From: a virus | Length of the DNA stretch: 64,000 bases | Virus record (IMG/VR): IMGVR_UViG_3300027722_000005 | Location: 23,741 to 87,740 of that record | Direction: 5' to 3' (one strand) | Shown: positions 23,761 through 50,123 of the stretch, one piece after another | Layout: every line of letters begins with the position of its first letter | Numbering within the stretch: position 1 is the stretch's first letter | The notes under the pieces: model-generated | Database searches by the model: none | Seen by the model: the letters and a program-made list of their open reading frames with translations, nothing else | What the model was told of the DNA's origin: nothing | Translations under genes and position numbers: made by a program

Positions 23761-23776
23761 GCACCACCCCCGCGAT

Positions 23777-23805
23777 TTGCCATTCTCGCCACCCTTTGCT
23801 ATAAT
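23777..23805 (+). promoter_or_regulatory. Sigma70-type promoter
   Basis: TTGCCA-17-TATAAT with TG extension. Confidence 0.65.
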
Positions 23806-23856
23806 GTTTCCCGTTGGCAACGTGCCAATGAGCCTCCAGTCATAGCTCAACCGAGC

Positions 23857-24075: not shown

Positions 24076-24221
24076 GGCCCTGTGTCGCCAGGGTGACGCC
24101 GGGCCGCACTATGGCTGCACGGAACATGAGCGCGACGTGTTCATGCCCCGCGCTTTTGTGGACAGGTGCCGCGCGATGTGTCTACGGCGGCGACAGATAG
24201 CTTAACTGGAGTATAAGGATC

Positions 24222-25730
24222 GTGAGCAGCCGCCCCTTGCGTGTCGCCATTTGGGCCGCCGTCTCTTCCAGGCGCCAGGCCGAAGAGGACAGGGTAAGCC
24301 TTGACGACCAGGAAAAGGCGGGCCTGGCCTGGGCGGAGGGCTTGGGTGCCGAGATTGTCAACGTCTACCGGGTGCCGGGCCACACCCGGGACATCTGGAA
24401 CTGGAACGAGGCCGAACGCGAGATGCCCGCCTATCGCCAGTTGCGCGAGGATGCCCAGGCCGGCAAGCTGGATCTGTTGTGGGCTTACGACATGGACAGG
24501 CTCGGGCGCGACCCGGCGCTAGGCCAGCAGGTCATCTCCCTGGTGGAAAAGTCGGACGGCCCCAACCTGCCCCGCGCCGAAGTCTATGTCGCCAGCTCCC
24601 CGCATGTTGTCGGCTCAAAGACCATAGGCCACCGCTACATCGGCGCTATCCAGTCCGTGCGTGCCGGCGAAGACCAGGAAATGCGCGTCCGGCGTTTCAA
24701 GATGGGCATGAAGGGCCGCGTACTCCGCCATGGCCTGATGGGCACCACGATCCCGGCGGGCTACACGCGCGTCAAGGACGGCGACGGGAAGACCACCGGC
24801 TACGCCCTGGACGACAACGCCCCGGCCGTGGATACGGTGACGCGCCTCTACCTGGACGGCCTGCCCTATGCCGAGGTTGCCCGCCGCATGAACGAGAGCG
24901 GCTACCGCTACCCGGGCGGGCGTCCCTGGCGCTACTATGACATCGGCCGCATCATCCGCAACGACGCCTATGCCGGGCGCCCGCGTCTCGGGCCGCTCCA
25001 GTGGGAAGGCGAGCCACAGTATCCGGCCATCTGGGACGATGCCACCTGGACGGCGGTGCAGCGTGAGCGACAACGGCGACGAGTGGCGCCACAGGTTTCG
25101 CACGGCGGCAACCCCTACAGCGGCGTCCTCTTCTGCGCTCGTTGTGGCGGCGGGATGAACCAGGTGATCAGCCGCACCGGGGGCCGCGTCTATTTGTACT
25201 ATCGCTGCCAAACCCACGCGCGACAGACGGAGCATGGCCGCTCGTGCCATTGCAACTTTATCGCCCGCTGGAAGGTGACAAGCGCCCTTGTCGCCTACTT
25301 CTACAGCCTCCAGACGCCCGAACGGGTGGATGCCCTGCTTGCCGAGTATGGCGACAGTGCCGACGCCGAACGGCTGCGCGGTGAGATCGCGGCGGCGGAG
25401 AAGGCGGCGAAGGAAACCGAAGTGGCGCGCTACCAGGCGGGGCTAACGCACTCGCGAGGCAAGATGCACACGGACATTTACCGGCAGGTTGACGACGAGC
25501 TGCTTGCCGAGCTTGCGGCGCATCAAGGCCGGGCGGCGGAGCTGGCTCGACATCTGGCCGCTTTGCCCGATCTGGACGCATGGCGCAAGCAACTTGCCGA
25601 CGTCGCCGGCACGTTTGCCGAGGTCATTGAGGATGGCCTTGTGGCGCCAGAGACGATAGCGGCGGCGTTGCAACGGGCGGGCGTTCGCTGCTGGGTCGAG
25701 GATGGCGAGGTCGTCAAGATCGAGCCGTGA
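24222..25730 (+). CDS. Large serine recombinase (probable integrase)
   Basis: WAAVSS catalytic Ser, DRLGR, recombinase domain (PAGY...RNDAYAG), zinc ribbon CARC...YYRC...C, coiled coil. Confidence 0.9.
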   Translation: MSSRPLRVAIWAAVSSRRQAEEDRVSLDDQEKAGLAWAEGLGAEIVNVYRVPGHTRDIWNWNEAEREMPAYRQLREDAQAGKLDLLWAYDMDRLGRDPALGQQVISLVEKSDGPNLPRAEVYVASSPHVVGSKTIGHRYIGAIQSVRAGEDQEMRVRRFKMGMKGRVLRHGLMGTTIPAGYTRVKDGDGKTTGYALDDNAPAVDTVTRLYLDGLPYAEVARRMNESGYRYPGGRPWRYYDIGRIIRNDAYAGRPRLGPLQWEGEPQYPAIWDDATWTAVQRERQRRRVAPQVSHGGNPYSGVLFCARCGGGMNQVISRTGGRVYLYYRCQTHARQTEHGRSCHCNFIARWKVTSALVAYFYSLQTPERVDALLAEYGDSADAERLRGEIAAAEKAAKETEVARYQAGLTHSRGKMHTDIYRQVDDELLAELAAHQGRAAELARHLAALPDLDAWRKQLADVAGTFAEVIEDGLVAPETIAAALQRAGVRCWVEDGEVVKIEP

Positions 25731-31092: not shown

Positions 31093-32388
31093 TTGCCAGA
31101 ATCAATAATCGTCTATGACTGGCGCGGCAACGTGCGCGACCTGGACTATCTGCGCGGGCGCTACGGCAATTTCCAGATTCTCGAAGCGGCGGCGGGCAGT
31201 GGTCCCGTCTACCGGATCAGGCGCTTGCGCGAAAAGGCAGAGAACGACTTTGACCCGGCGGTGCTGGCCTCCAGGCGCTACACCCTGGAGGGCCAGGCGT
31301 GGGAAGCGCAGCGACTGAACGTGCCCGCGCTGGCACAGATCCACAGCGCCGCGTCAACTATGCGCGCCGGTGCCGTGACGATGGCCGCCGCTGCCCTTGT
31401 CGTGCGCGTGGCCGACGAACACGGCGCGGCCATAAACGGCCAGCGGGTCGCCTTCTACTGGCCCGACGCGCCCGTTGACCCGTATGCCGGACCCGCCGGC
31501 GGCTTGCTGCCCGGCATGGTTCCGGGGCGCTGCGTGTGGGGTGTGACAGAGCGCGGCGACGTGGGCTTTGGCATGGGCCGCGATTCCTACTTCTGGCCGG
31601 GCCAGGGGCAGATCGGCCCGCACGCCGTCTGGGTGTACGGCGACGATACCAGAAGCGACGTGATCCTGGGACTGGGCATGGTCGCGCTAACGGACCACGC
31701 GCATTTTGACGTGGAATACGAACGGGTTGAGGGCGGGGATGTACCGCCAGAGGAGGAGGGAGACTTGCCAGAATACTTTGACGAAAACGGGGCGGAAATG
31801 GCCGGGGCCTTGGTACGGGAGCATTACGGCATCCAGGACGTACACCGACCCGCTGAGTTGCCAAGGTTCGGGCTGGTAGAGCTGATGGCCCGATCCGGCG
31901 ATAGCAAGGCGCTGGCCGTTTTCGTTGACGACGAAGATGGCGCCCCCCTGCCGGGCGTGACCATCGCCCTTGGTCCGCGTGACCGGGCGGGCAACGTGCA
32001 GCGCGGCGTGACAGACGAAGACGGCGCGGTCACTTTCGACATTGGCGATGAGACATACCGCTACAACGTCCCATCGGAACAGGGCCATTGGTGCGTTGCC
32101 GTTGAGGGTCCGGCATCCGACGTTTACAATAGCGCCGGCTGGGTATGGACCGGCCGCAAGAGTCCGGGCAGGTGGTTCGATCTGGTCTTTCGCCGCAAGG
32201 TGAACGAAGACGTGCCCGAACCGCCGGGGCCAGAACCGCCCATCCCGCCGGTTGACCCTGAGTTGCCCGACGAAGCACGGGGCGTGGTCAACGCTGTCAT
32301 CGAGGCCATCGACACGGCCGTTACCCGACTGGAAGCCGAAATCGACAACCTGGAAGTCATGCGCAACACACTGGCGGCGCTGTTGTGA
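31093..32388 (+). CDS. Protein with two tandem prealbumin/carboxypeptidase-regulatory-like domains
   Basis: VADEHGAAING versus VDDEDGAPLPG; GVTERG versus GVTDEDG. Confidence 0.65.
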   Translation: MPESIIVYDWRGNVRDLDYLRGRYGNFQILEAAAGSGPVYRIRRLREKAENDFDPAVLASRRYTLEGQAWEAQRLNVPALAQIHSAASTMRAGAVTMAAAALVVRVADEHGAAINGQRVAFYWPDAPVDPYAGPAGGLLPGMVPGRCVWGVTERGDVGFGMGRDSYFWPGQGQIGPHAVWVYGDDTRSDVILGLGMVALTDHAHFDVEYERVEGGDVPPEEEGDLPEYFDENGAEMAGALVREHYGIQDVHRPAELPRFGLVELMARSGDSKALAVFVDDEDGAPLPGVTIALGPRDRAGNVQRGVTDEDGAVTFDIGDETYRYNVPSEQGHWCVAVEGPASDVYNSAGWVWTGRKSPGRWFDLVFRRKVNEDVPEPPGPEPPIPPVDPELPDEARGVVNAVIEAIDTAVTRLEAEIDNLEVMRNTLAALL

Positions 32389-34256
32389 GCCGAGCAGAAA
32401 AGCTGGCCGTCATAATCCTGATTGGGCTGTTCGTACTGGGCGAGGCCGTGGTCTTTGCCCTCGCTCAGAAGGGTTGGGCCACCGAGGCGCCCGCCGCCGA
32501 GCCGTTCACTGCGCAACTTGAATTGCGCGGGGAGCTGTGGCGGCTAGAGGGACAAGCGTATCTTGTGGGCAGCGTGACGCCCATCCCCACCGACACGCCC
32601 ATCCCTACTGACACACCGACCCCCACCGACACGCCCGAGCCCATTGCCGACCTGGACGTGGGCGCGCATGGCTGGGGCTTTGCCCTGGAGACGATGGCCG
32701 CGCATCCGCAAGGCAACGCACTGATCGCCGTGCCCATCCCCTTCCAGATGTTACAGGCCGGTTACACCTGGCCCGATCTCGTAGCCGCCGCGGGCTACGC
32801 CGGACCCGCCGAAAGCAAATTCGATGGCCTGGCAAAGACGGCGGCGGGGCAGGCGGGGCGCGGCGCAAACGCCCTGGTCTACGTGCCCGAAGCGGTGGAA
32901 ACGTCGGGCAGCGTGCCGTTGCCCGAGACTACCGACCTGGAAGCCTACGTTGACCGGCTGGCGGCTGTAGCGGCAGAGTACGGTTACATCCCCGTCTATG
33001 GGCCGGGCCTGTCGCTCGTGAGTGACCCGGCGACGTGGGCCTACGGCAAAGCCTACGACCTCCAGGCGGAGCGAATAGCGGATCTGGCGTCGCGCCTGCC
33101 CGCCGGTTCGTTCTGGATCTTGAGGATGTTCACGCCCGAGCTGATGTTCGGCCCGACTGCCGAGTTCGGGCAGGCCGTCGCCGATTATGCCGGGGCCATC
33201 CACGCCGGCAACCCGGGCGTCAAGATCATCCTGCACCTGTCCTGCCCGGCGGGGAGCGAGGCCAAATTCCTCTCCTTCCTGGACGTGAGCCGCGCCTTTA
33301 TCGACATGGCCTACATGGGCATCGACCCGGTGCGCGACAACGCGGGCACGCTATTGACCATGGCCGCCATCCTGGAGGCGACGGGCGCGGGGCCGATTGT
33401 CTCACCTACCGACACGCCCGAGCCGCCTACGCCAGCGCCTGCCGTGTTCTACGATCTGGCCTACGGCCCGGACCCGGCGCACCGGCTTGACCTCTACCTG
33501 CCCGGCGGCCCTGGCCCCTACCCCGTCGTGGCCTGGTTCCACGGCGGCGGCTTTGAGATCCCGGCCGACAAGAGCATGGTACACGAACAATGCCAACTGC
33601 TGGCCGACGCCGGTTTCGCCTGTGTCGCGGCCAACTACCGGCAGCACACGGACGGCGCGGCAGAGTTCTATCTGCCGGCGCAACTCTACGACGCCAAGGC
33701 CGTCATCCGCTGGATACGGGCCAACGCCGAAAGGTACGGCCTGGACGGGGAGCGCATCGGGGCCATCGGTGGATCGGCGGGCGCGTTCCTGTCGGCGACG
33801 CTGGGCACCTCGGGTGGCGAAGCAGAGGGCGACGTGGGGCCATACCTGGGTTACCCGTCGGATGTGCAAGTTTCTGTTGGCCTGGCGGGCGTCTATGACC
33901 TGCTGGCCTACTACGCCCGGCCTATCAAGGCGTGCGCTGCCCTGCCCATTGGCGACTCTCGCTGTTTCGAGAATGAGCTTTTTTACTGCTACTTCAACGA
34001 CCCGGCCTGCCTGGAGCGGATGCGCCTGTCGTCTGCGTTCCATCACGTCTCGCCTGGTGACGCGACAAGCCTGGTTGCCATCGGCACGCTGGACGCCACG
34101 CCGAACGGCCTTGCAGATCACGAAGCCTACCACGCTGCCTTGCTGGCGGCGGGTGTGGATTCGACGCTGCTCATCATGGACGGCTACGAGCACGCCGAGT
34201 TGTGGCCGGACATCGCGCCGGTCTTGCTCGCGTTCTTTGCGGAGCGCCTGCGATGA
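32385..34256 (+). CDS. Membrane-anchored or secreted protein with C-terminal HSL-family alpha/beta hydrolase
   Basis: N-terminal TM, PTDTP linkers, HGGG, GGSAG, Asp and His of the triad near the C-terminus. Confidence 0.85.
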   Translation: MSRAEKLAVIILIGLFVLGEAVVFALAQKGWATEAPAAEPFTAQLELRGELWRLEGQAYLVGSVTPIPTDTPIPTDTPTPTDTPEPIADLDVGAHGWGFALETMAAHPQGNALIAVPIPFQMLQAGYTWPDLVAAAGYAGPAESKFDGLAKTAAGQAGRGANALVYVPEAVETSGSVPLPETTDLEAYVDRLAAVAAEYGYIPVYGPGLSLVSDPATWAYGKAYDLQAERIADLASRLPAGSFWILRMFTPELMFGPTAEFGQAVADYAGAIHAGNPGVKIILHLSCPAGSEAKFLSFLDVSRAFIDMAYMGIDPVRDNAGTLLTMAAILEATGAGPIVSPTDTPEPPTPAPAVFYDLAYGPDPAHRLDLYLPGGPGPYPVVAWFHGGGFEIPADKSMVHEQCQLLADAGFACVAANYRQHTDGAAEFYLPAQLYDAKAVIRWIRANAERYGLDGERIGAIGGSAGAFLSATLGTSGGEAEGDVGPYLGYPSDVQVSVGLAGVYDLLAYYARPIKACAALPIGDSRCFENELFYCYFNDPACLERMRLSSAFHHVSPGDATSLVAIGTLDATPNGLADHEAYHAALLAAGVDSTLLIMDGYEHAELWPDIAPVLLAFFAERLR

Positions 34257-34359
34257 CGGCGCACTCTAACGGGGATACCCGCTGCGCTGGGGGCGGCGGT
34301 TATTCTACTCTCCTCCTCATGGGCCGGGGCAGCCCTCTCTGTCCCGGCCCCAGGGGTGG

Positions 34360-34581
34360 GTGATGAGCCGCACGCATAAGGACAGGCTGCCGGCCGGGAT
34401 TTGCGCCATTCTCGTTGGTGGACAGGATGGTGCCTATATCCCGCGTTGGAGTTGTCCGGGCGAAGGGCGTTATTGGAAGCGCCGCTACCACAAGGCCATG
34501 CGCCAGTGGCAGCGGGGGCATGGCGGGAGAGAGCACGCCGTCCTGCATTATGGACGGGAGTGCAATTGGAAGTTGACGTAA
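34360..34581 (+). CDS. Small basic hypothetical protein
   Basis: MSRTHKD...WKRRYHKAMR. Confidence 0.5.
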   Translation: MMSRTHKDRLPAGICAILVGGQDGAYIPRWSCPGEGRYWKRRYHKAMRQWQRGHGGREHAVLHYGRECNWKLT

Positions 34582-34595
34582 TGAAAGGGGAAAAC

Positions 34596-34814
34596 GTGGA
34601 CAAATTCGATTGGGATCAGGCCAACGAGATAGTTGACCTGGACTTGGACGGGAAAATCAAGATGCTGGGCGCGGTTGCGCGCGAGCTTTTGGGCATGAAG
34701 GTTGAGCTTGCCGCCGTCAGTGGACGGCACGCCGAGTTGAAGGCCAACCTTGCCGTTCTGTCGGCGGTTAAATCGGCGCTGCAATCGTCTATCCGCGCCG
34801 AGCAAGCCCATTAG
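34596..34814 (+). CDS. Small coiled-coil protein
   Basis: GAAAGGGG RBS, GTG start. Confidence 0.55.
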   Translation: MDKFDWDQANEIVDLDLDGKIKMLGAVARELLGMKVELAAVSGRHAELKANLAVLSAVKSALQSSIRAEQAH

Positions 34815-34844
34815 CCTACCGGGGTAGGGTATCCGGCGGGAAAC

Positions 34845-34886
34845 AAAAAAAGGCCCGGCGCCGGCGGGATGCCGGACACCGGGCCT
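34845..34886 (-). terminator. Intrinsic terminator ending the leftward cluster
   Basis: AGGCCCGG/CCGGGCCT stem with A7 on the plus strand. Confidence 0.75.
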
Positions 34887-34921
34887 ACACCTTAACAAGA
34901 TCCTCAACGGAGATCGGATCG

Positions 34922-35590
34922 TCATAACTGAGCGTACCGCTGTTGATCGCGGTATCGCTCAAGTTCCACATGCGGAATCACCAGGTCGCGGCCTGGTCCG
35001 AACACGGCCTTAACAGCCGTGGGGGAAAGACCCAGCCAAGCCGCGGCCTGTTCTGCCGTGTACTGCGGCAGGCGAACGTGAATCTGCGCGTGGATTGTCA
35101 GACGCACGAGCGCGCGCCGGTCCAATGACGCTTCTGGCACCTGCTTGCCCGCGTCCTGAAACAGCCTTGCCAGCCGCTCTTGCTGCCGTGGTTGGTCCCG
35201 TTCCCGCATCCAGGCCAGCAGATGGCGCTCGCGGTTGTAGCGGACAAGCTCGGCGTGGGCGAAGATCAGGTCGTGCCCCGGCTTGGTGGCCGCGATTAGC
35301 CCGCCATCGTAGGCGTAGCGCAGCCCACTGACTGACAAGCCGAGCCATGCCGCCGCCTGCCGCCGGTTGTACGACGGGAGATGCACGCACTGCTGCACCA
35401 GTTCTGTCAGGCGCACGATCTCGCGCTTGTCCAGCAGCAGCTTGGCGGCCCCGTCGGCGAGATCCGCCATCTCAATTTGTTCGTCGGCGGTCAACGCAAT
35501 GTAGTGGATGCCATTGGCGCCCGCCGCATACTTGATGAGCAGCGCCAGCTCGCGCTGCTGATTCTGCAAGTCCCTTACGAGCATATGCAC
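34922..35590 (-). CDS. Tandem HTH_17 (excisionase-like) domain protein
   Basis: Two repeats: YNRRQAAAWLGLS...PGHDLIF and YTAEQAAAWLGLS...PGRDLVI. Confidence 0.75.
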   Translation of the reverse strand: MHMLVRDLQNQQRELALLIKYAAGANGIHYIALTADEQIEMADLADGAAKLLLDKREIVRLTELVQQCVHLPSYNRRQAAAWLGLSVSGLRYAYDGGLIAATKPGHDLIFAHAELVRYNRERHLLAWMRERDQPRQQERLARLFQDAGKQVPEASLDRRALVRLTIHAQIHVRLPQYTAEQAAAWLGLSPTAVKAVFGPGRDLVIPHVELERYRDQQRYAQL

Positions 35591-35593
35591 CCC

Positions 35594-35761
35594 CTACCAG
35601 GAACGACGGCGACGGCGACCACTGCGCCGACGCAGCCGATAACTTGCGCAGCCGGTTGAGAAGTCGCCGGCCTTGAAGCCGGTGAACGTGCTTGACTTGA
35701 AGCCGGTCCTGGGCATGATGCTGCCTATGCCCAAGAGTTTGCCGAGTTTGAACTTTGCCAT
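35594..35761 (-). CDS. Small very basic protein with Arg-rich tail
   Basis: MAKFKLGK...RLRRRSGRRRRRSW, 55 aa, translated by hand. Confidence 0.55.
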   Translation of the reverse strand: MAKFKLGKLLGIGSIMPRTGFKSSTFTGFKAGDFSTGCASYRLRRRSGRRRRRSW

Positions 35762-35765
35762 TATG

Positions 35766-36068
35766 TTATCTTCCTTTCGTTTTGTCGGGTGCCCGCTGAT
35801 TGATAAATGCCCTTACGCCGATACTGCTCGCAAGCATCCCCCTAACCGTTGGGGAGTGCCTGTCGTAATGCGGACTTTCCTCGATCTCGATTGCCCCTTG
35901 CGCTTCAAGGGCTCGGTGGTGTCCATCAAGGATAAAATACCTATTCCTACCGAGTGGGGCTACAAGAATGGGGGCGTGCGCGCGCGACGTTCTGCCCGCG
36001 TCAATATCGTTCTGTGTCTCTTCCAGCTTGCAGATTTGTGCAACCAACTGGTTCTTATAGGCCCACAT
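35766..36068 (-). CDS. ParB/Srx-like N-terminal domain protein
   Basis: PILV...YFILDGHHRA; GAAAGGAG RBS. Confidence 0.7.
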   Translation of the reverse strand: MWAYKNQLVAQICKLEETQNDIDAGRTSRAHAPILVAPLGRNRYFILDGHHRALEAQGAIEIEESPHYDRHSPTVRGMLASSIGVRAFINQRAPDKTKGR

Positions 36069-36096
36069 AGTTCTCCTTTCCGCCGGTCTTACCCGG

Positions 36097-37071
36097 CTAC
36101 AGCTCCACGCCGGCCAGGGCTTGGCGCAGATCGTCGTCGTCCAAGTGGACATAGAACGCGGCGGTTGTCGCCGCCGACTCGTGGCGCAAGATGCGCTGCG
36201 TCGTGGCCAGGTCGTGCGTTTCCTTCTGGATCAGCGTCGCGCCGCGGTGGCGCATCGAGTGCGGGTTAAAGCGGTCAACGCCGGCCGCATCGCAGACACG
36301 GTACAGCCCCAGGCGCAGGCCGTTCGCGGACACCGGCAGCAAGCGGTTGCCCGTTGGCTTGTCGTGCCGCGCAAAAAGCGGCTCGTCGCCGTCCGCGCGC
36401 AGCAATGCCGCATCCCTGGCGGACAGATAGGCGACAATGGCGGCGATTGCGCGGTCGTCGAAAAAGATTGTGCCAACCTTGCGGCCCTTGCCGGTCACCT
36501 GCGCGCACCTTGCGCCAATGTCCAGGTCATTGCGCTTGAGCGCCGCAACTTCGCCGATTCTTGCGCAAGTTGCGCGCAGGGTTTGCAGCAGCGCCGCATT
36601 CCTCAGCGCAACCAGGCGCAAGCGTTGCGACTCTTGCGCGTCACCTTGCGCAGCTTGCGCGCAAGTGAGCGCAGCTTGCACGTCCGCTTCGTCAGGTAGG
36701 CGCAACTTTTGCGATTGGCTTGCGGAGCGCCAGTCCTCTTGCAGCCCTGCCTCCAACTCTGTCAGGTCGGTTGGCGCAAAGCCCGCAGCTTTTGCGCGCA
36801 AGAGCCAGCGGTAGAACTTGACAGTGGCGGTCAGGTAGACATTGACCGTGGCGCTTGCGTGCCTGTCCGCAATGTTGCGCGCAAAGTCAATAACGTGCGC
36901 GCAAGTGAGCGCAGTTGCGTCAGTCGTTGCGGGGTCTTGCGCAAGTTGCGCCGCAAAGCCCGCCAGTGCCGACGCATACGTGCGCGCAGTCTTGGGACTC
37001 TTGCGGCCATTGCGCCCGCGTTGGCGGGGCAGGTCCGCAACAAACGCATTGATTGCGTCAGTGATGGTCAT
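36097..37071 (-). CDS. Tyrosine recombinase (XerC/D-like)
   Basis: SPKTARTY, TCARIGE (R), GKGRK (K), HSMRH, LRH, FYVH (Y). Confidence 0.92.
   Translation of the reverse strand: MTITDAINAFVADLPRQRGRNGRKSPKTARTYASALAGFAAQLAQDPATTDATALTCAHVIDFARNIADRHASATVNVYLTATVKFYRWLLRAKAAGFAPTDLTELEAGLQEDWRSASQSQKLRLPDEADVQAALTCAQAAQGDAQESQRLRLVALRNAALLQTLRATCARIGEVAALKRNDLDIGARCAQVTGKGRKVGTIFFDDRAIAAIVAYLSARDAALLRADGDEPLFARHDKPTGNRLLPVSANGLRLGLYRVCDAAGVDRFNPHSMRHRGATLIQKETHDLATTQRILRHESAATTAAFYVHLDDDDLRQALAGVEL
36440..37060. repeat. Dense array of TTGCG/CGCAA motifs inside the recombinase gene
   Basis: About 36 copies by hand count, including TTGCGCAA and TTGCGCGCAA palindromes. Confidence 0.9.
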
Positions 37072-37259
37072 GCGGCAGTCTCCTTCCGCATTCCCGGTGG
37101 CATGGCGACAAACAGCCGCTTCGGCCGCGGGAACGCATAGCTCCACGTCTTGAACAGCACGCCCCGTTTGGCGGCGCCTTCGAGCTGCCGCCGTTCTTGC
37201 GGCGTTATCTGTCCGATGTCCGTCACGCCACAGTCAAGGGCGCGCTGTACGATGGTCAT
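37068..37259 (-). CDS. Hypothetical protein
   Basis: AAGGAG RBS; ATGA overlap with recombinase. Confidence 0.65.
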   Translation of the reverse strand: MTIVQRALDCGVTDIGQITPQERRQLEGAAKRGVLFKTWSYAFPRPKRLFVAMPPGMRKETAA

Positions 37260-37307
37260 GGCTTCTCCTTGCCCGCCGGTGCGGTCCCGGCGGGCGTGGG
37301 TGCTAGG

Positions 37308-37631
37308 TCAGTTGATGGGGACGCCCCGCTCTGCCGCCAGGGTGCGGACCAGCTCCTCGGCCTCCTTGAACGTAAGGCCCAGCACTTCCGGTTCGCCCTC
37401 GGGCTGCCAGAAGTCGCAAGAGCAGAATTCCTGCATCAAGGCCCCCCCAGACGCATCGGGCCAAAGCTCCTGCCAGAAGTTGTATTCTCCGCCATTGCGG
37501 GCGCGGCTGGGGTCACGGGAAATTCGGGTTTCGATCACGATCTTCTTGTCGCTTAACTCCACGCGGGCATCGAATCCATCTGCCCGCTCGTCCTTGGCCA
37601 CCAGGATAGCATTCTCAATCCGTCTGTACAT
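37308..37631 (-). CDS. Hypothetical protein
   Basis: GAAGGAG RBS; MYRRIENAILV... Confidence 0.65.
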   Translation of the reverse strand: MYRRIENAILVAKDERADGFDARVELSDKKIVIETRISRDPSRARNGGEYNFWQELWPDASGGALMQEFCSCDFWQPEGEPEVLGLTFKEAEELVRTLAAERGVPIN

Positions 37632-37644
37632 CTTCCTTCTCCTT

Positions 37645-37785
37645 CTGCCCGTCCTACCGGGCCGTGTGCCGACTCTCGCCGGCTCGTTTCCGTTCCCAGC
37701 CCTGGCCGCTGGCCGCCGGCTTTGGCCGATATAGCCACCGGTGATCTCGGTCAACGGCCAGGGGTGGGGGCGGAAAGCCCCCTAT
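37645..37785 (-). ncRNA. Intergenic multi-stem structured RNA
   Basis: Long stem CCCTGGCCGTTG/CAGCGGCCAGGG with nested and flanking hairpins. Confidence 0.45.
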
Positions 37786-37792
37786 TCGGTTG

Positions 37793-37990
37793 TTACGCGC
37801 GGATTGCCTCGCGCCCGCCTTCGGCCTTGCGGATCGCGTATCCCGTGATATGGTCGGGGCAGCGGATGACCATGATGCCGTTGAACTGGTCCTCGCCGCT
37901 CTTTGACTTGGCAATCAGCCAGCCGTGCAGGTGCTGTTCGTCGGCCGTCCTGCCACACTTGCCGCACACGTACAGTTGCTTGCTAAACAT
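37793..37990 (-). CDS. Small zinc-finger protein
   Basis: CGKC...CPDH; GAAAGGGG RBS. Confidence 0.65.
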   Translation of the reverse strand: MFSKQLYVCGKCGRTADEQHLHGWLIAKSKSGEDQFNGIMVIRCPDHITGYAIRKAEGGREAIRA

Positions 37991-38055
37991 CGTTCGGTCC
38001 CCTTTCCTGTGTGTACTTGGCCTGGGTAGGCCAGTATCCTCAGCGGATCGTCACA

Positions 38056-38292
38056 CTAGGGGGTCAGTTCTTCGGGCCAGCCGTCCACGTTCTCGGTGTT
38101 CCAGCGGATGTCGGCGGCGCTTTCGCCCTCGTTGAACCAGCCGCGGAATTCGACGCCGGAGTCCTCCTTGGCCTCAATCAGCCGGTCGGGATAGCCGTGG
38201 CTGTCCCGGCGGATGCGGATCACCTTGGCGTATTTCAGCCCGGACTCCTTCTTAATCATCTTGCGGTCCATCTTGCTCAACATGTCGTTCAT
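38056..38292 (-). CDS. Hypothetical protein
   Basis: 78-aa ORF with RBS. Confidence 0.6.
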   Translation of the reverse strand: MNDMLSKMDRKMIKKESGLKYAKVIRIRRDSHGYPDRLIEAKEDSGVEFRGWFNEGESAADIRWNTENVDGWPEELTP

Positions 38293-38304
38293 TTCTCTAA
38301 CCTT

Positions 38305-38380
38305 CCCTGAATTTCGGCTTGCGCCGATTCCTCATTCGGAATTCGTCAGGGCACCCCCACCAAGGTGGGGAGTATTCAGT
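38305..38380 (-). ncRNA. Hammerhead-like structured RNA (non-canonical)
   Basis: CUGAAU/AUUCAG stem III, CUGACGA, GAAA; extra bases and an extra hairpin. Confidence 0.35.
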
Positions 38381-38381
38381 T

Positions 38382-38966
38382 TTAGGCGGGCAGCCAGTCC
38401 CAATCGGCCAGTTCGGCGCACACAGCCTGGTAGTCATCCTCCAGGCTGGACAGCAGGCGCTCGTACTCCTCGCCGTTCACGCCGTCCACGTCGATCTTGT
38501 GGTCGTGCACGTCGCCCATCTCCACTTCGACGGTTGCGCCGGGGTTGGCCTTGACCATGCCGTCCGCGAGGGCCTGGGCGTAGCGGGCCGTCAGGTCAGC
38601 GTTGTCGTGCTCGATGCATTCGTCAACGTCGTACTCGCCCGTTTCGGGGTCCAGGCCGTGGCCCATGTAGCGCGAGCTGGTGCCGTTGCCGGCGATTTCC
38701 TCGTGGATCTCGCGGGCGCGGTCCTTGTAGTCTCCGAACCAGTCGATGATGTCCTGCTTGTTGATCTTGACCGTGATTTCCATTTTCTGATCTCCTTTCG
38801 TGACAGCCTGTCCGCTTTCGTCCGTTGCCGCTTCGGGCCGCACTTCGGCCCCGCACCAGCAGTACACGTGCCAGCGCCCCAGGGAGCGCCGCGCTTCTGC
38901 CGTGTCCCGCACCATGTTGGGTGCCCCGCACTTGGGGCATTGGAATGTGAGGACCGTGATGGTCAT
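38382..38966 (-). CDS. Zinc-ribbon N-terminus plus highly acidic domain (likely second start at 38783)
   Basis: CPKC...CWC; internal GAAAGGAG RBS and ATG at 38783. Confidence 0.65.
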   Translation of the reverse strand: MTITVLTFQCPKCGAPNMVRDTAEARRSLGRWHVYCWCGAEVRPEAATDESGQAVTKGDQKMEITVKINKQDIIDWFGDYKDRAREIHEEIAGNGTSSRYMGHGLDPETGEYDVDECIEHDNADLTARYAQALADGMVKANPGATVEVEMGDVHDHKIDVDGVNGEEYERLLSSLEDDYQAVCAELADWDWLPA

Positions 38967-39010
38967 CGTTCTTGCTCCTTTCGCTCTTGGGCATCCCGCC
39001 CAATGTCTAG

Positions 39011-39039
39011 ATTATATCATACAGTTGGCGGCCCGTCAA
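39011..39039 (-). promoter_or_regulatory. Strong sigma70 promoter
   Basis: TTGACG-17-TATAAT with TG extension. Confidence 0.85.
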
Positions 39040-39085
39040 GTTAAACTTTCGCAACCTAACGGGCCGCCGTGATAGCAGGGCTGGA

Positions 39086-39472
39086 TCAGGCCGTCGCCAT
39101 GACCAGCTCGGTCAGTGCGCTTTCGATGCGCTGGAAGTCGCCCACCTTGCCCCAGTCGATAGGGCCATGCAGCGCCAGGTGTAGCGCCCGGTCATTTACC
39201 CGTTCGTCGAGCACCCGTAGCAAGTGCTGGCTGTTGGTCACGGTGCTGTAGAACGCTGCCCGGGGCTCATAGTTGCAGTTCTGGTAAGCCTCAACGGTCG
39301 GGGCCGATTTCGCCTTGGCGAGTGCATCCCGCGTTTCCGCGATGGCTCCCGTCAAGTCCTCGATGACCACAGCGCCGTCTTTTTCGCTGACGTGCCGCAA
39401 GATGGTCGTCATGGCCGCGTGCATGGCAAAGAGTGCGACTTCTGCCGCGCCAATGAGTTCGGTTTGTTCCAT
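39086..39472 (-). CDS. Hypothetical protein
   Basis: 128-aa ORF; C-terminal IDWGKVGD motif. Confidence 0.65.
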   Translation of the reverse strand: MEQTELIGAAEVALFAMHAAMTTILRHVSEKDGAVVIEDLTGAIAETRDALAKAKSAPTVEAYQNCNYEPRAAFYSTVTNSQHLLRVLDERVNDRALHLALHGPIDWGKVGDFQRIESALTELVMATA

Positions 39473-39643
39473 CGTCCTTGTCCTTTCTGTTTTTTTTTCT
39501 GAAAAAGCTCAGCCCGCCCGTGCCCGTCCTGTTATGGAGACTCAATCTGCTCCACCGCCGCGCCCGCGATGCGCCCAAGAGCTGCCGGGCCTTTCGCCTG
39601 CTTGGTGGCCGTCCGGTGCCGGAGTTGAACCGGCAGGGGGGGG

Positions 39644-39871
39644 TTACGTCGGGTCCGAGATGTACGTCACGTCGCAGCGATAGCAGCGGTACGTGCTCAG
39701 GCGCTGCTCAACGCCGGCCTCGTTGCGGTACGGCTTGGTGAGGGCCGCCGCGAATTGCCCGCAACCGTGGCGGGTCGTGACCGGAGTACCGACAGAAAAG
39801 CCCGCATCTTGGGGGTGCGAGCACTCGGTCACGGTTCGCTGGCCGTTCGGATAGCTGATCATCTTGCCCAT
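39644..39871 (-). CDS. Small Cys-containing protein
   Basis: GAAAGGAG RBS; HGC...CYRC. Confidence 0.6.
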   Translation of the reverse strand: MGKMISYPNGQRTVTECSHPQDAGFSVGTPVTTRHGCGQFAAALTKPYRNEAGVEQRLSTYRCYRCDVTYISDPT

Positions 39872-39975
39872 CGTTCGTTTCTCCTTTCAGTCTCACGGGT
39901 TCCCCCTTGCCCGCGTTCTCAGTGGCCAAGGGGCAGCCCGCGAGGGCTGCGTGAGGTGCGTGCGCACCGTTGCGC

Positions 39976-40398
39976 TTAGTCCCAGCCGGCCGCTTGGTAG
40001 GCCGGGGAGTCGTCAACGATCTGCATGGCGAGCAGTTTGGAAGCCTCGTCCATCAGCTTGTAAAGGTCGGTCTTCGGCACGTTCCCTTCGCTGCACTGAT
40101 ACAGCCAGCAGCGCAGGGACTTGTAGGCCGACACGGGCAGCGGGGCCGGCGTGGGGCAGTAGGTGAAGTTCAGCGGTCGGAACTGTTCGGCAGAGTCGGG
40201 GTAACGGGCGTTAACCGCCTCGACATTCAGGGCAAACATGGCGGATGCCAGCCGTTCGCGGTCCTCGCGCTTGTCCAGGTCATAGCCCGCTTCTGTGATA
40301 CCGCGTGCGGGCCAGTAGAAACGGTCGCCCAGCAGCTTTGTGTAGAAAAAATCCACGATCCGATTGATGGTCTTGTCTTCGACTACATAGGCGCTCAT
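39976..40398 (-). CDS. Hypothetical mobile-element protein
   Basis: MSAYVV...LNVEAVNARY...CWLYQCSEG. Confidence 0.75.
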   Translation of the reverse strand: MSAYVVEDKTINRIVDFFYTKLLGDRFYWPARGITEAGYDLDKREDRERLASAMFALNVEAVNARYPDSAEQFRPLNFTYCPTPAPLPVSAYKSLRCWLYQCSEGNVPKTDLYKLMDEASKLLAMQIVDDSPAYQAAGWD

Positions 40399-40446
40399 CG
40401 TACAATCCTTTCTGCCCGGTACAAAGCCCCGGGCTGGGCGTTTCGT

Positions 40447-40505
40447 CTCTCATTCAGGCCGGCCCGATTTGCCGGCGACTAGGCGACGGTGCGCCTAGTT
40501 TCGAG
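40447..40505 (-). ncRNA. Type II hammerhead ribozyme, core variant CUGAAUGA
   Basis: CUC-GAAA-CUAGGCG/CGCCUAG-UC-GCCGGC/GCCGGC-CUGAAUGA-GAG; GUC triplet. Confidence 0.75.
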
Positions 40506-40508
40506 TGC

Positions 40509-40733
40509 TTAGTAGTCGTATCCGCAATCGGTGCCGAAACGGTCCATGGACTGCTCGGCGCGCAAGTCGTTTGCTCCCTGTCGGCCGCACGTCTCGCAAA
40601 CGGCGGCTTTGGTCTTGGGATAGTAGAAGATACGGTCGCCCTTGCGGATTTGCTTGCCACAAGTGCAAGTGCTGGCAAACCGGGCGGCCAGCCAATACGG
40701 ATCAGCGTTCCCATAGCGGCGGTTGCGATACAT
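40509..40733 (-). CDS. Small zinc-finger protein
   Basis: CTCGKQIRKGD...CETC; GAAAGGAG RBS. Confidence 0.7.
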   Translation of the reverse strand: MYRNRRYGNADPYWLAARFASTCTCGKQIRKGDRIFYYPKTKAAVCETCGRQGANDLRAEQSMDRFGTDCGYDY

Positions 40734-40749
40734 GGTCAAGGCTCCTTTC

Positions 40750-40956
40750 CTAGTACGCCACAACGGCGAGTCGCACGTCAGCGAACGGGCCAACGTGGAA
40801 GAACGCGCCGGCGTGGGTTTCGTTATAGTGCCGATAGTGGTACAGCTTCCCGCCCAGTGGCCAGCGGCCGCTCTTGGTGAGAGAGTACCGTTCCCTGAAC
40901 ACAGTAAATCGCACGGTTACATACCTGCCGCGGATGCGGAAATTCCAATTTTTCAT
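40750..40956 (-). CDS. Small basic hypothetical protein
   Basis: GAAAGGA RBS. Confidence 0.55.
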   Translation of the reverse strand: MKNWNFRIRGRYVTVRFTVFRERYSLTKSGRWPLGGKLYHYRHYNETHAGAFFHVGPFADVRLAVVAY

Positions 40957-40970
40957 CGTTCTTTCCTTTC

Positions 40971-41108
40971 CTAATACTTGGGCGCCGCCAGAAGCAGCGC
41001 CAGCCACAAAACGAGAATCCCCAGCAGCGCCAGCGCAATCACTGGCGCGCCAGTCGAGATAGACGCGAGCGAGGAGACAAAGGCGGGCAGGTCGAGCAAG
41101 AGATCCAT
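40971..41108 (-). CDS. Small membrane peptide (45 aa)
   Basis: GAAGGAG RBS; hydrophobic C-terminal half. Confidence 0.5.
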   Translation of the reverse strand: MDLLLDLPAFVSSLASISTGAPVIALALLGILVLWLALLLAAPKY

Positions 41109-41109
41109 G

Positions 41110-41322
41110 TTAACTCCTTCCCAGCATCCGTTCGGCCTCTTTCGGCCCGAACGTGGTCATATACTCTGTATGGCCGTTAAACGTCTTGCTCTTGGCGGTC
41201 AACGGCACGCCAGAGAAGAGGGTTAGCGTCGCGCTATCCGTGCAATGCGTGTCAATCCCCTTGGCGCGGTAGTGCTCCTGCAACAATCCTTTCAGCTTGC
41301 GCGCGTAGTTGGCTTTTGTCAT
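41110..41322 (-). CDS. Hypothetical protein
   Basis: GGAGGAG RBS. Confidence 0.6.
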   Translation of the reverse strand: MTKANYARKLKGLLQEHYRAKGIDTHCTDSATLTLFSGVPLTAKSKTFNGHTEYMTTFGPKEAERMLGRS

Positions 41323-41325
41323 CGG

Positions 41326-41565
41326 TTAGGCTCCTCCCCACCTGTGATTGCGGGGCAGCGTATCGGGCGCATCGCACGCATCGCGCGAGTTGGGGAAAGT
41401 CGCTGTACGCTGCTCGTACTGCTCCCATCCGGCCGTTTGCGTCGCGCGTTGGTGCCAGATGCGCGCGCACTGCTCGGCGTGTTGCTGTGCAGCGGTGCGT
41501 ACCATGCACTGCCAGTTGTGGCGGGGCGACTTGCGGTCATACACTACAAAGGCCAGTTCTGACAT
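41326..41565 (-). CDS. Hypothetical protein
   Basis: GAGGAG RBS just downstream of the twister. Confidence 0.6.
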   Translation of the reverse strand: MSELAFVVYDRKSPRHNWQCMVRTAAQQHAEQCARIWHQRATQTAGWEQYEQRTATFPNSRDACDAPDTLPRNHRWGGA

Positions 41566-41588
41566 TGTACTCTCCTCTTTCGGCTGAT

Positions 41589-41640
41589 TGTACCCTCTGC
41601 GTCTTCCGCCGGGCTTGGGACCGGCTTGCCGCATTATGCC
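41589..41640 (-). ncRNA. Twister ribozyme (P1 type)
   Basis: UAA-UGCG-GC-AA-GCCGGUCCCAAGCCCGG-...-CGCA-GAGGG; P2, P4 and both pseudoknots present; P1 weak. Confidence 0.85.
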
Positions 41641-41733
41641 CGCGGGCCAGGCGGGCTATTCTGTTTTCGTGAGAATTGGCTTTAACGGTGCTTCATGGTA
41701 TTAATCCTTTCGTTAGCAAGAGTTTGTGGGGTG

Positions 41734-42084
41734 CTACTTAATGAGTGAGTGCGTTACCTCGCTTCCGTTCCAGCGATGCACCGTGATCGGGGTGCCGCTA
41801 TCCAGAAAACCGCGCAGAAGGTCTTTCGTGCAAGCGTGGTATCCAATGCCCTCGCAAGAGGACAAGCAACCGCCGGTCTTGGTTTCGGTGCTCCAGGTGC
41901 CGTTGACTGCGATGTGAATCATCGTTGCATCTTGCCCGTAGCGCAAGCCCTTTGTGTACTGCTCGCTGGCCAGATCACGGACAACGTTCGGGGTGTACCC
42001 GTCAAACGGGGTGTCAAACTGCTCCCATGCCAGGTAGGTTTCGGGGGACAATGCGCGCAATTCAGCATAACCGCTGTATCCCAT
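41734..42084 (-). CDS. Hypothetical protein
   Basis: AAGGAG RBS; 116 aa. Confidence 0.65.
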   Translation of the reverse strand: MGYSGYAELRALSPETYLAWEQFDTPFDGYTPNVVRDLASEQYTKGLRYGQDATMIHIAVNGTWSTETKTGGCLSSCEGIGYHACTKDLLRGFLDSGTPITVHRWNGSEVTHSLIK

Positions 42085-42108
42085 CGTTCGCTCCTTTTTT
42101 TCAGAATT

Positions 42109-42210
42109 TTTGCTTGTGTACTCCTGCCCGCCGATAATGGAGTCGAACCATTAATCGACGCCCAACCCGGGCAGCGGGCAGCAGCGCACAAGCAAGTGTG
42201 AGCTGCTGTA
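42109..42210 (-). ncRNA. T-loop three-way-junction RNA
   Basis: UUGCUUGUG/CACAAGCAA, CUGCCCGC/GCGGGCAG, T-arm AAUGG-UUCGACU-CCAUU. Confidence 0.5.
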
Positions 42211-42213
42211 GTT

Positions 42214-42489
42214 CTAGCGCACCGCAACGCGCGCATAATCGTGATACTCAGCGTGGTGATTGTCCAACCGGCTCGGCTGCTCGCCCGTGCCCCGTGCCCA
42301 CTGTGCCCAGCGGTTTGCATCCTCTTGGATCTTGTAAGCATACTCGCACGCATCGGTAAGACTCGTGAATCGGGCGATTGTCTTACCCTCAGTGCTTGTC
42401 TTGGGCGTCTCGTGCGGCTCGGCGTAGAAAACCACAACGTCAAACCACTTCTTTTTGCTGCTCAGTCCGATATAGTTGCTGAATTCCAT
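42214..42489 (-). CDS. Hypothetical protein (first gene of the leftward cluster)
   Basis: GAAAGGA RBS; 91 aa. Confidence 0.65.
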   Translation of the reverse strand: MEFSNYIGLSSKKKWFDVVVFYAEPHETPKTSTEGKTIARFTSLTDACEYAYKIQEDANRWAQWARGTGEQPSRLDNHHAEYHDYARVAVR

Positions 42490-42521
42490 TGTCGGTATCC
42501 TTTCGTTTCAGTTTTTTTCAG

Positions 42522-42577
42522 AAAAAAAACCGCCGTGCCGGGCTTGCACCGGGCAGCAGGCTTAATCCTCGGCGGTT
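42522..42577 (-). ncRNA. Three-way junction with UGCAAGC loop followed by a U tract (attenuator-like)
   Basis: AACCGCCG/CGGCGGUU closing stem; CGG-UGCAAGC-CCG hairpin. Confidence 0.45.
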
Positions 42578-42856
42578 ACAGTATTCTATTGTACCCATGC
42601 CATGGGCTTTTTTGAATGAAGTTGTCCTGGTTAACCCAGTCGCCTTAATTCGCTTGAATCCCATTAACCTGGCGCTCAAACCAAACTGGCAAACGTTCGG
42701 CGGCCAATGCGGCGCTTTGCGGATTCGCTTTTCGGGCTGTATTGAACCGCTTTCTCGCTTGCACTTGCTCTATGGCCTGGACTGTTGCCGTGGCTTACCT
42801 TTGGCCTTGCTACTCTTGGCGGTTCTGTTGTTAGGGTTCCTTTGTTCTATGGCTGG

Positions 42857-42922
42857 ATTGTATCACATAGCCCAACAGACATCCTGACATCTAGCTGACA
42901 GCAATCTGACAGTAACCTGACA
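42857..42922 (-). promoter_or_regulatory. Extended -10 promoter with four TGTCAG repeats at 11-bp period
   Basis: CTGACA at 42884, 42895, 42906, 42917 on plus; minus TGnTACAAT at 42865-42857. Confidence 0.7.
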
Positions 42923-43700
42923 CGCTATGATAATCATCATAACAATACATGACTAGGGATGAGTGACCTACCCCATCATAGATAGATACTCAGCCTACAG
43001 ACGCAGGTGCTACTACTACTATTGCGTTCTAGGAACCGGCCAGGATGGGCATTATTCAGGTGCGTGAGTAGTAGTAGTAGCGGAGTCGAGCCACCGTCGA
43101 TACGGGAACCGGGGAGCCGATAGATCAGGGGAGCTGGCACCGTCGATACCTCGATAACCTGGGGCTGTTGCAGCCATTGCCAGTCTGGCCAGCGCAAGCA
43201 CACAAGCATAACAGTCTAAGGTATCGAGCATGGCGACAAGCTGACATAACTACAGTACATGGGTGAGTAGGGTGGGGGGGGATGTATGTAGTATGATTAT
43301 GTGTAGTGGGGAGATGGGGAGTAGGGACAATGGGGAGTAGGGGAGTAGGGTATCATCTGTCGCCCCTCAACACGCGGCCCATCATGCCCGAACAGGTGTG
43401 CTACATACTACCATGCTCGTGCTCACTCTGCTGCTACGTGTCATAGATGGGTCTAATCATAATTAAACACACCTATCATGTAGTATATATGTGTAGAATC
43501 ATAGCGAACTACAATGAATAATATCATGCTATCATGCTACTCTGCTCTATCGATGCGAGCCCATGGATCGTGCCACTGGCCAGCGCATCGCGCAGCGTCG
43601 AGCCGGCAGAACCGGAGAAATTTCTAGGCCGGGCCTGGGGAGTGGGCGGCACTCCCCCAGGTTTTCCATACGCGGTGAAAGTGTATTCTTATGTCAAACG
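42923..43700. other. Low-complexity non-coding tract, possible genome terminus or packaging region
   Basis: Lower GC, TAC/GTA runs, G-tracts, inverted repeat near 43634-43661; transcription diverges from it. Confidence 0.5.
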
Positions 43701-43715
43701 AAAGGAGAATGACAG

Positions 43716-43934
43716 ATGGAGAAGTTACTTACCGTAGGGGTGATAGTTTTCGTGTCGCTCCTATTGGCCCTTATCTTCGCGGGCGTCTACAGCATCGTGG
43801 GCGCCCTCCTGGATACTGGAGATTCCCTGCCCGCTGCCCACTGGACGCCCGTCGAACCGCCGCATCCCGGGCTGTCGTGTTGGGCATTGGGAACAACGGG
43901 CGTGTACTGTGAGCCTGCTACACCTTCCCCGTGA
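43716..43934 (+). CDS. Small membrane protein
   Basis: GAAAGGAG RBS; N-terminal TM. Confidence 0.6.
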   Translation: MEKLLTVGVIVFVSLLLALIFAGVYSIVGALLDTGDSLPAAHWTPVEPPHPGLSCWALGTTGVYCEPATPSP

Positions 43935-44211
43935 GCGTAGCGCCCTGGATCTCGATGCTGATCTCTTCGCCGTCGAGCCTGAAACTGCCGCCATGTGGCC
44001 TGAGTAGTGCATGGGCGGCATGAATAGCGCGGTCGATGCCGTCTTGCAGGCCGTCATCATACCCCCGGGTGTAGAGATCCCTGCGTTTCGACGGCTTGGG
44101 GCGCTTGTACTGGCGGTAGTAGCAGGGAACGCAAAGACCGCTGCCCTTGTGGGGATGCTCTGGGCTGTGGCAATTCTGGCATTCATCGTAGTCTATGGCC
44201 CAGCGTTTCAT
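43918..44211 (-). CDS. Zinc-finger protein in a counter-oriented moron
   Basis: CQNC...GLCVPCY; own TTGACA-17-TATCAT promoter at 44295-44267. Confidence 0.65.
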   Translation of the reverse strand: MKRWAIDYDECQNCHSPEHPHKGSGLCVPCYYRQYKRPKPSKRRDLYTRGYDDGLQDGIDRAIHAAHALLRPHGGSFRLDGEEISIEIQGATLTGKV

Positions 44212-50089: not shown

Positions 50090-50123
50090 TGGCAAGGATG
50101 AATTGACGGTAACGGGAGGCAAT

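Follow-up and report, generated by a model that had tools for sequence, protein, structure and literature searches.

The stretch of DNA considered here (the window) comprises 64,000 nucleotides of a single virus record (IMGVR_UViG_3300027722_000005, positions 23,741 to 87,740 of that record), and it carries a gene for an Xer-like tyrosine recombinase whose 5′ two-thirds is filled with a lattice of short words, TTGCGC and its complement GCGCAA, set in phase with the double helix. An earlier model-generated note on this DNA (the original prediction) had pointed to an excess of the pentamers TTGCG and CGCAA in this gene and had proposed that a second code, read at the level of DNA, is selected within the coding sequence (CDS). 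The two features that coincide at the locus are as follows.

36097–37071, minus strand: Xer-like tyrosine recombinase gene, 324 aa, intact (Pfam, PHROG, and alignment)
36440–37071, assigned to neither strand: helically phased TTGCGC/GCGCAA half-palindrome lattice (about 61 turns with a period of 10.45 bp and the ideal unit TTGCGCAAnn, over codons 1 to about 211)

The recombinase is recognized by PF00589 (72.3 bits, cut-off 27.1) and, for its SAM-like N-terminal domain, by PF02899 (35.7 bits, cut-off 22.3), and it matches PHROG 1, "integrase", at 3e-31; XerC and XerD are the source names of two of its homologues, and the homologue P0002 is 40% identical to it. The catalytic residues R171, K195, H271, R274, H297, and Y307, which the note had described as retained, are indeed invariant in a ten-sequence alignment composed of the recombinase and nine homologues. 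In composition, the protein is 19% alanine and contains many arginine, glutamine, and leucine residues. The sole close relative of the gene lies on a metagenome contig of 2.5 kb (L001), truncated within the recombinase gene; across the 81 codons in common, six synonymous and three non-synonymous codon changes are found (crude dN/dS of about 0.3), and by this comparison the recombinase reads as a functional, intact coding sequence under purifying selection.

Between 36440 and 37060, 22 copies of TTGCG and 14 copies of CGCAA are present; the total is thus exactly the 36 that had been estimated by hand, and the expectation of 1.94 copies, based on how often the motif occurs elsewhere in the genome, falls within the one to two originally given. 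In bins of 500 bp, the motif is counted 30 times in 36501–37000, seven times in the adjoining 37001–37500, and six times or fewer in all other bins of the 64-kb window. Extension of the motif to the hexamer GCGCAA/TTGCGC is seen in 23 of the 36 copies, against 0.77 expected, and the longer word TGCGCGCA occurs seven times in the array against an expectation of 0.01. Palindromes are present as well, but not as many as the note had implied: two copies of TTGCGCAA and three of TTGCGCGCAA supply 10 of the 36 motif copies, and these five, 8 and 10 bp in length, are the only copies in the genome. The array runs from the start codon (37071) to about 36440, near codon 211, and the last 113 or so codons of the recombinase hold two motif copies; the predicted fall in density outside the gene is therefore found at the 5′ end, whereas the opposite border of the array falls within the coding sequence.

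The enrichment is not accounted for by the protein. The whole recombinase CDS contains 38 motif copies, occupying all three reading frames, where the genomic background is about three per 975 bp and the protein sequence would permit at most 60; synonymous resampling from genome codon usage yields 6.4 ± 2.3 copies (maximum 17 in 10,000 runs, so that 38 is never reached), and permutation of the gene's own synonymous codons yields 16.4 ± 2.8 (maximum 27 in 10,000 runs). The excess thus persists under amino-acid-preserving shuffles with genome codon usage, and the claim of a second DNA-level code in the CDS survives both kinds of codon shuffle; it is further strengthened by the helical phasing described below.

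The spectral power of the motif centres reaches 14.4 (n = 36) at 10.4–10.5 bp, whereas random placements give a 95th percentile of 7.4 for the maximum power, and none of 2000 attains 14.4; each orientation taken separately is periodic too, with powers of 13.0 (n = 22) and 9.9 (n = 14). At 10.45 bp, the power is 34.3 for G/C triplets, 24.5 for T, and 15.7 for A, and the phases of S (G or C), A, W (A or T), and T lie at 0.2, 3.4, 5.4, and 6.5 bp, respectively, with S and W counter-phased; from these phases, one turn can be written approximately as TTGCGCAAnn. The phase of the lattice is constant to about 1 bp over five successive 150-bp sub-windows. The pentamer stands at a lattice point in 28 of the 61 turns between 36440 and 37071, and most of the remaining turns carry a degenerate TTGC or GCGC. 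Tandem Repeats Finder reported no tandem repeat in the array, which is a dispersed lattice over unique coding sequence and not a duplicated unit; in this lattice, the GCGC cores share one face of the helix, and the flanking TT/AA steps lie half a turn away. A period of 10.45 bp is the helical repeat of relaxed B-DNA. Because this period is no multiple of three yet stays coherent over 630 bp, the reader appears to be the double helix itself, and the period is hard to explain otherwise; at the same time, the dominance of one hexamer makes a protein that reads sequence more likely than a pure shape code.

Codon choice in the gene is pulled towards the motif. For example, glutamine is encoded by CAA in 13 of 16 cases (31% in the genome), arginine by CGC in 25 of 32 (35%), phenylalanine by TTT in seven of 10 (33%), and threonine by ACT in eight of 25 (9%). 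Sequences in which the codons of the same protein were resampled have a G/C-triplet power of 13.8 ± 3.1 (maximum 24.9 in 1000 runs) against 35.0 observed. At the corresponding spacing of 3.48 residues, the power is 2.0 for hydrophobic residues, that is, no period, and 6.6 for alanine (GCN); the lack of a period in the hydrophobic residues rules out an origin of the spacing of about 3.5 residues in amphipathic helices or in a coiled coil. Synonymous sites thus carry one part of the lattice, and the other part lies in an amino-acid choice that the lattice has itself shaped.

The clearest mark on the protein is at position 169, which is glycine in nine of nine aligned homologues and cysteine here, where TGxR has become TCAR (ACT TGC GCA AGA) under a TTGCGCAA palindrome, as had been noted from the letters. 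The second such change in the note, LGH to LRH, is real, but it lies under an isolated motif copy outside the array, and the homologue P0003 likewise has arginine there. As a general statement, the overwriting of conserved residues by the motif stays anecdotal beyond Gly169: three of seven well-conserved columns under motif codons are changed, compared with eight of 41 elsewhere, a difference that is suggestive and not significant. Identity to homologues in the array part and in the tail is 42% versus 45% for P0002 and 31% versus 34% for P0003, and judged from these alignments, the shaping of residues by the lattice is tolerated by the protein.

Within its own genome (872 scan windows), the windows of the array score highest, at 33.1, where the median is 5.3 and the 99th percentile is 15.5; across other loci (2.57 Mb, 15,611 scan windows), the 99.9th percentile is 16.2, and the sole equal scorer is a tandem repeat encoding peptide repeats in a giant virus. 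Second to the array in the genome scan is the stretch 51361–51960, which lies inside an 803-aa open reading frame (ORF; 50010–52421) and has a G/C-triplet power of 25.6 at 10.5 bp; it is without an enriched k-mer and without A/T periodicity, and no period of 3.5 residues is seen among its hydrophobic positions. Distant homologous recombinase genes, 79 from metagenomes and 80 from genomes with 29–36% identity, were also compared, and a comparable lattice was found in none of the 79 and none of the 80. Their maximum G/C-triplet power is 13.0 (metagenome) and 12.2 (genome) against 28.9 for this CDS, and their commonest 6-mer reaches no more than 10–11 copies against 25 in this gene. Among the genome loci with homologous recombinase genes, 79 of 80 are titled Anaerolineae or other Chloroflexota, which suggests the phylum of the host and an Xer-type ancestry of the recombinase; the host of the phage is probably a member of the Chloroflexota (Anaerolineae).

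Contig L001 covers the first 249 bp of the gene at 95.6% identity and has 14 motif copies where the window has 15 (two lost and one gained). Its similarity begins sharply about 5 nt before the ATG of the recombinase, and the genes upstream are unrelated. The lattice is thus inherited and specific to this lineage, and L001, as an independent assembly, confirms the array; an assembly artefact is very unlikely. Farther upstream, L001 is a mosaic, with islands 85–97% identical to the window at 37687–37782, 38961–39080, and 39470–39535, between which most genes differ.

Searches for the array elsewhere returned other kinds of sequence. An exact 19-mer of the array has no match in the viral_contigs collection, and the phages collection contains no DNA match and only protein matches of at most 31%. 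The pattern TTGCGC-N3-6-TTGCGC-N3-6-TTGCGC is found at no fewer than 120 loci in viral_contigs; among the 120 loci scanned, the dense ones are coding tandem repeats in one orientation (period 9 or 12) or the giant-virus peptide repeat. The same triple pattern is present in 34 of 301 Anaerolineae-class genomes, and the 20 loci among the matches listed have at most 10 copies per 600 bp, unphased. The one recurrent instance in these genomes (L282, L283, and L284) falls at the 3′ end of a sigma-factor-like gene, in a segment coding for the peptide ...ALRKLRHPLR...; it was considered as an array and rejected as a coding coincidence that arises from TTGCGC codon pairs. A search for a prophage or attB with the 2.9-kb module against 401 genomes of the Anaerolineae class gave only short matches of up to 104 bp.

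In the literature searches that were made, no account was found of a lattice that spans 61 turns and reshapes two-thirds of a gene, and the 8-bp palindrome appears, among the matches listed, only in the contexts of eukaryotic C/EBP and of primers. Sites within genes are known from the lambdoid origin in the initiator gene, the origin and pac site of SPP1, and the Fis-bound enhancer in the hin and gin invertase genes. The last of these resembles the present case in that the gene that hosts the site is the recombinase gene itself; such in-gene sites consist of four iterons of about 19 bp or an enhancer of about 60 bp, far from a lattice of 630 bp and 61 turns with its effect on codon and amino-acid usage. 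Similarly, parS lies within the parT coding sequence of plasmid SCP2, as described in passages of PMC12260392, and it is, like the lattice, a protein-binding DNA signal that shares a coding frame; it is there a single 18-bp palindrome. Cis-elements in coding sequences and phased binding arrays are both known; what would be new is the extent of this lattice, which takes up two-thirds of its gene.

Towards the end of a leftward operon, the recombinase is preceded by a 63-aa ORF and followed by proteins or ORFs of 101, 55, and 222 aa and by a terminator-like hairpin; a promoter scan found none inside the array. The neighbours of the recombinase are listed below in the order of transcription.

37068–37259, minus strand: 63-aa ORF; its stop overlaps the recombinase start codon, it matches no Pfam or PHROGs family, and it is not conserved in L001
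35766–36071, minus strand: 101-aa protein, directly downstream of the recombinase; it matches no family in Pfam and PHROGs
35594–35761, minus strand: 55-aa ORF with an arginine-rich C-terminus (ORF list)
34922–35590, minus strand: tandem winged-helix protein, 222 aa (excisionase/MerR-type, HTH_17 twice; Pfam, Atlas, AF2, and Foldseek)
34844–34886, minus strand: intrinsic-terminator-like hairpin with U-run (a GC-rich stem of 15 pairs, then UUUUUUU; −40.7 kcal/mol, z −3.8), ending the operon; it was found by a minus-strand fold and omitted by a simple consensus scan

The 222-aa protein had been named in the original prediction as a tandem helix-turn-helix (HTH) protein, and its assignment to the excisionase/MerR-type winged helices gains support from several directions. 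Pfam HTH_17 matches it with E = 3.5e-5 (24.4 bits, under the cut-off of 27), and PF12728 is precomputed both for it and for a relative that is 84% identical (P0018); its nearest Atlas clusters are HTH_17, with scores of 0.87–0.89. The AlphaFold2 (AF2) model, with a predicted local distance difference test (pLDDT) of 87.3, shows two units that each consist of a helix-turn-helix and a beta-wing. Local Foldseek matches include MerR N-domains, Pukovnik Xis, the excisionase RdfS, RacA, and a terminase DNA-binding domain, with prob 0.94–0.99 and a root-mean-square deviation (rmsd) of 1.5–2.7 over 49–58 columns, none of them reaching a whole-model E ≤ 0.001; for Xis and RdfS, prob is 0.95–0.98 with a whole-model E > 0.1. 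Four relatives of about 125 aa (P0019–P0022) have a single HTH and are 56–58% identical over the first 54% of the query, and among the relatives found, the duplication of the HTH is common only to P0018. On these models, the tandem winged-helix protein would be the best candidate for a binder of the lattice. A predicted complex of the recombinase with this protein scored 0.01 against a mark of 0.32, which counts neither for nor against binding. The 101-aa protein, which had been called ParB-like, has Atlas feature matches of 0.94–0.95, five of 30 in clusters labelled ParB_N, and an Atlas model with a pLDDT of 0.40; the label comes from a language model and is not recovered by Pfam in the protein or in a six-frame search of the genome, so that a protein made of the ParB N-terminal domain only is possible and no more than a lead. 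Close relatives that carry the recombinase, the tandem winged-helix protein, or the 101-aa protein were absent from viral_contigs.

The lattice can be read as a putative cis-acting track for cooperative binding, with one protomer per turn, and this reading is given an even chance. A small DNA-binding protein would coat the lattice cooperatively, one protomer or one domain per turn and all on one face, so that a long filament of nucleoprotein would form. The best candidate for this role is the tandem excisionase/MerR-type winged-helix protein, which is encoded in the same operon about 850 bp downstream. A long cooperative filament is proposed because winged-helix recombination directionality factors (RDFs) and their relatives are the best-documented proteins to bind in this manner and because the candidate, of the same fold class, is co-transcribed with both the lattice and a tyrosine recombinase. 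The filament might serve the recombinase module in either of two ways: as an accessory or architectural arm by which two copies are aligned or paired for recombination, or as a block to transcription through the recombinase operon. A bolder form of the proposal, in which a straight, one-face filament of the tandem winged-helix protein zips two phage genomes together along their length, either as a synapsis device or topological filter for the Xer-like recombinase or as a pairing or segregation element that is independent of an NTPase, is rather unlikely.

Xis, Apl, BldC, and RdfS are proteins of related folds that bind phased repeats as cooperative filaments. The direct repeats to which RDFs bind are spaced by one helical turn; single sites are weak and binding is highly cooperative, with bending and spreading, as set out in passages of PMC7498355. 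The RDF arrays described there (e.g., those of lambda Xis and of Apl of phage 186) have in common with the lattice the spacing of one turn and the association with a tyrosine recombinase, and the likeness to Xis extends to a candidate excisionase-type winged-helix gene in the operon of the lattice gene. Filaments on DNA are likewise described in parts of the reports on BldC (PMC5859096) and RdfS (PMC11963761). These two proteins are of the same fold class as the candidate binder (the local match to RdfS, 8dgl, has prob 0.98 and an rmsd of 2.4 over 53 columns), and according to those parts, they form cooperative multimers over sites of variable length, akin to the coating proposed for the lattice; they are, however, single-domain proteins with sites of up to a few repeats, whereas the candidate binder has two domains in tandem, and RdfS is without a consensus motif where the lattice has a clear hexamer.

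Several points weigh against a cooperative track of this kind. The lattice mixes orientations (22 versus 14) and contains five palindromes with two half-site spacings, whereas the RDF arrays covered in the passages of PMC7498355 are head-to-tail and located in intergenic att or promoter DNA and not inside a recombinase CDS. Those arrays have three to seven sites; the lattice, with about 30 occupied points over 61 turns, is roughly ten-fold longer. Moreover, the RDF arrays of that source flank an att core, and a recombination core site was not found near the array: in an inverted-repeat search of 34200–38200 with at most 12 nt between the arms, seven short pairs were obtained, none of which is convincing as a core site for the recombinase. 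The winged-helix assignment is itself sub-threshold in Pfam and only local in Foldseek. Finally, a host protein or a pure DNA-shape function would fit the phasing equally well.

The alternatives draw in part on the wider genome. The source, one virus record of 87,740 bp, has a direct repeat of 127 bp at its ends and is classed as direct-terminal-repeat type and as 100% complete; it is the complete, circularly assembled genome of a tailed temperate phage of about 87.6 kb. Its features that bear on the reading of the lattice are the following.

23332–25730 (region): large serine recombinase, 502 aa (Resolvase, Recombinase, and Zn_ribbon_recom), adjoining an HTH_3 gene of the cI type, at a junction of divergent genes
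15055–15696, minus strand: C5 cytosine methyltransferase, 213 aa (PF00145, 33.2 bits, cut-off 22; six-frame family search)
16022–18445, minus strand: helicase fused to an N6/N4 methylase, 807 aa, with the C5 methyltransferase gene just downstream
47833–49092, plus strand: TerL, beside an HNH gene and 10.8 kb from the array
About 26 kb from the array: DnaB-type helicase module

The large serine recombinase is probably the real integrase of the phage, and the tyrosine recombinase would then be a second, accessory enzyme. The phage also encodes an AAA_24 protein.

The phasing could also reflect shape-coded DNA, that is, a curved or anisotropically bendable segment that is wrapped or bent by a non-specific factor (host nucleoid protein, gyrase, or histone-like protein) or acts by its own geometry without a dedicated binder; this is unlikely, even though S and W are counter-phased at exactly the helical repeat of DNA in solution. 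Anisotropically bendable or nucleosome-positioning DNA has A/T and G/C dinucleotides in counter-phase at a shorter, nucleosomal period, and the lattice resembles it in the alternation of A/T-rich and G/C-rich positions every half turn over hundreds of base pairs; it differs in its period of relaxed B-DNA, in being built from one hexamer, and in its bacteriophage context. An exploratory dinucleotide wedge model gives the array a ratio of end-to-end distance to contour length of 0.515, which ranks seventh among 1742 equal-length genome windows; as an estimate of curvature, this is tentative. In support of indirect readout, RdfS is proposed to read larger DNA regions in this manner, according to parts of PMC11963761. 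A shape code would nevertheless be expected to be degenerate, yet TTGCGC accounts for 23 of the 36 copies and TGCGCGCA is far above expectation, and the phage has no HU/IHF-type gene (PF00216, no matches). A GCGC methylation or restriction sensor or decoy had also been proposed; in this reading, the GCGC words would be targets of a phage or host cytosine methyltransferase, and the array would be a methylation island that acts as a sensor of state, a timing device, or a restriction decoy. The phage does encode a C5 cytosine methyltransferase and the helicase–methylase fusion, and GCGC is present 33 times in the 621 bp, where its frequency elsewhere in the genome predicts 6.6; the proposal is nonetheless quite improbable, as the word that is conserved, TTGCGC, is longer and asymmetric, GCGC is not avoided elsewhere (925 of the 958 genomic copies lie outside the array), and the 10.45-bp phasing over 61 turns is left unexplained. 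The relatives of the C5 methyltransferase are uninformative on its specificity.

Plasmid centromeres of the ParR/parC kind are typically short phased repeats bound on one face, and a centromere of a plasmid-like prophage, bound by the ParB-N-like protein, the winged-helix protein, or both, would match the geometry of the lattice. RacA, a MerR-type winged-helix protein that binds a centromere, is among the local fold matches, the 101-aa neighbour offers its ParB_N lead, and the location of parS in a coding sequence supplies a precedent (passages of PMC12260392). The defining partners, however, did not appear: six-frame searches of the whole genome gave no match at E ≤ 1 for a ParA-type ATPase (PF13614; ParM and TubZ were not searched for) or for ParB_N (PF02195), no ParA is present among the 45 proteins scanned in Pfam, and the serine recombinase beside the cI-type HTH gene suggests an integrating prophage, all of which makes the centromere-like function raised in the original prediction more doubtful still. 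Embedded phased repeat arrays are known, as are phage origins and pac sites in initiator or small-terminase genes, and the tandem HTH protein has a terminase DNA-binding domain among its local fold matches; a replication origin or pac site embedded in this gene is highly improbable all the same, for the gene in question encodes a recombinase and not an initiator or terminase, TerL, next to which the pac site of a headful-packaging phage would be expected, lies 10.8 kb away on the other strand beside the HNH gene, and the DnaB-type helicase module is remote. The array has no AT-rich unwinding element (GC is 0.60–0.64 in the flanking 1-kb bins), no turning point of GC skew, and, by Tandem Repeats Finder, no iterons of 17–22 bp. 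That the lattice has no function and results from amino-acid composition, codon bias, slippage, or an assembly artefact is practically negligible as an explanation: the composition of the protein does lift the expected count to 6.4, above the background, but none of 10,000 sequences in either type of shuffle reaches the observed count, the coherent period is not a multiple of three, no tandem repeat is present, the array is common to the independent assembly L001, and the reading frame is intact with its catalytic residues kept.

Whatever its reader, the locus illustrates how far a coding sequence can yield to a second, structural code at the DNA level, here over 211 codons. Were the lattice a filament track, binding of the excisionase/BldC type would be extended from a few sites to about 60 turns, and a defined 630-bp substrate would become available for the nucleation and spreading of filaments and for the organisation of recombination. 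If the zipping of two genomes by such a filament were true, the gene would hold the longest known superimposition of a protein code and a helical-face code in a prokaryotic virus. For annotation, the case calls for caution, in that a phage gene with odd codon usage and without some of its conserved residues need not be decaying but can hold an overlapping cis-element.

Elsewhere in the region, Rfam at the gathering threshold returned no families for 34000–44000. Following the holin region, a 623-aa protein is encoded at 32385–34256, with Pro/Thr-rich linkers and a C-terminal alpha/beta-hydrolase domain (BD-FAE/Abhydrolase_3), and it may be an accessory enzyme for lysis or a depolymerase.

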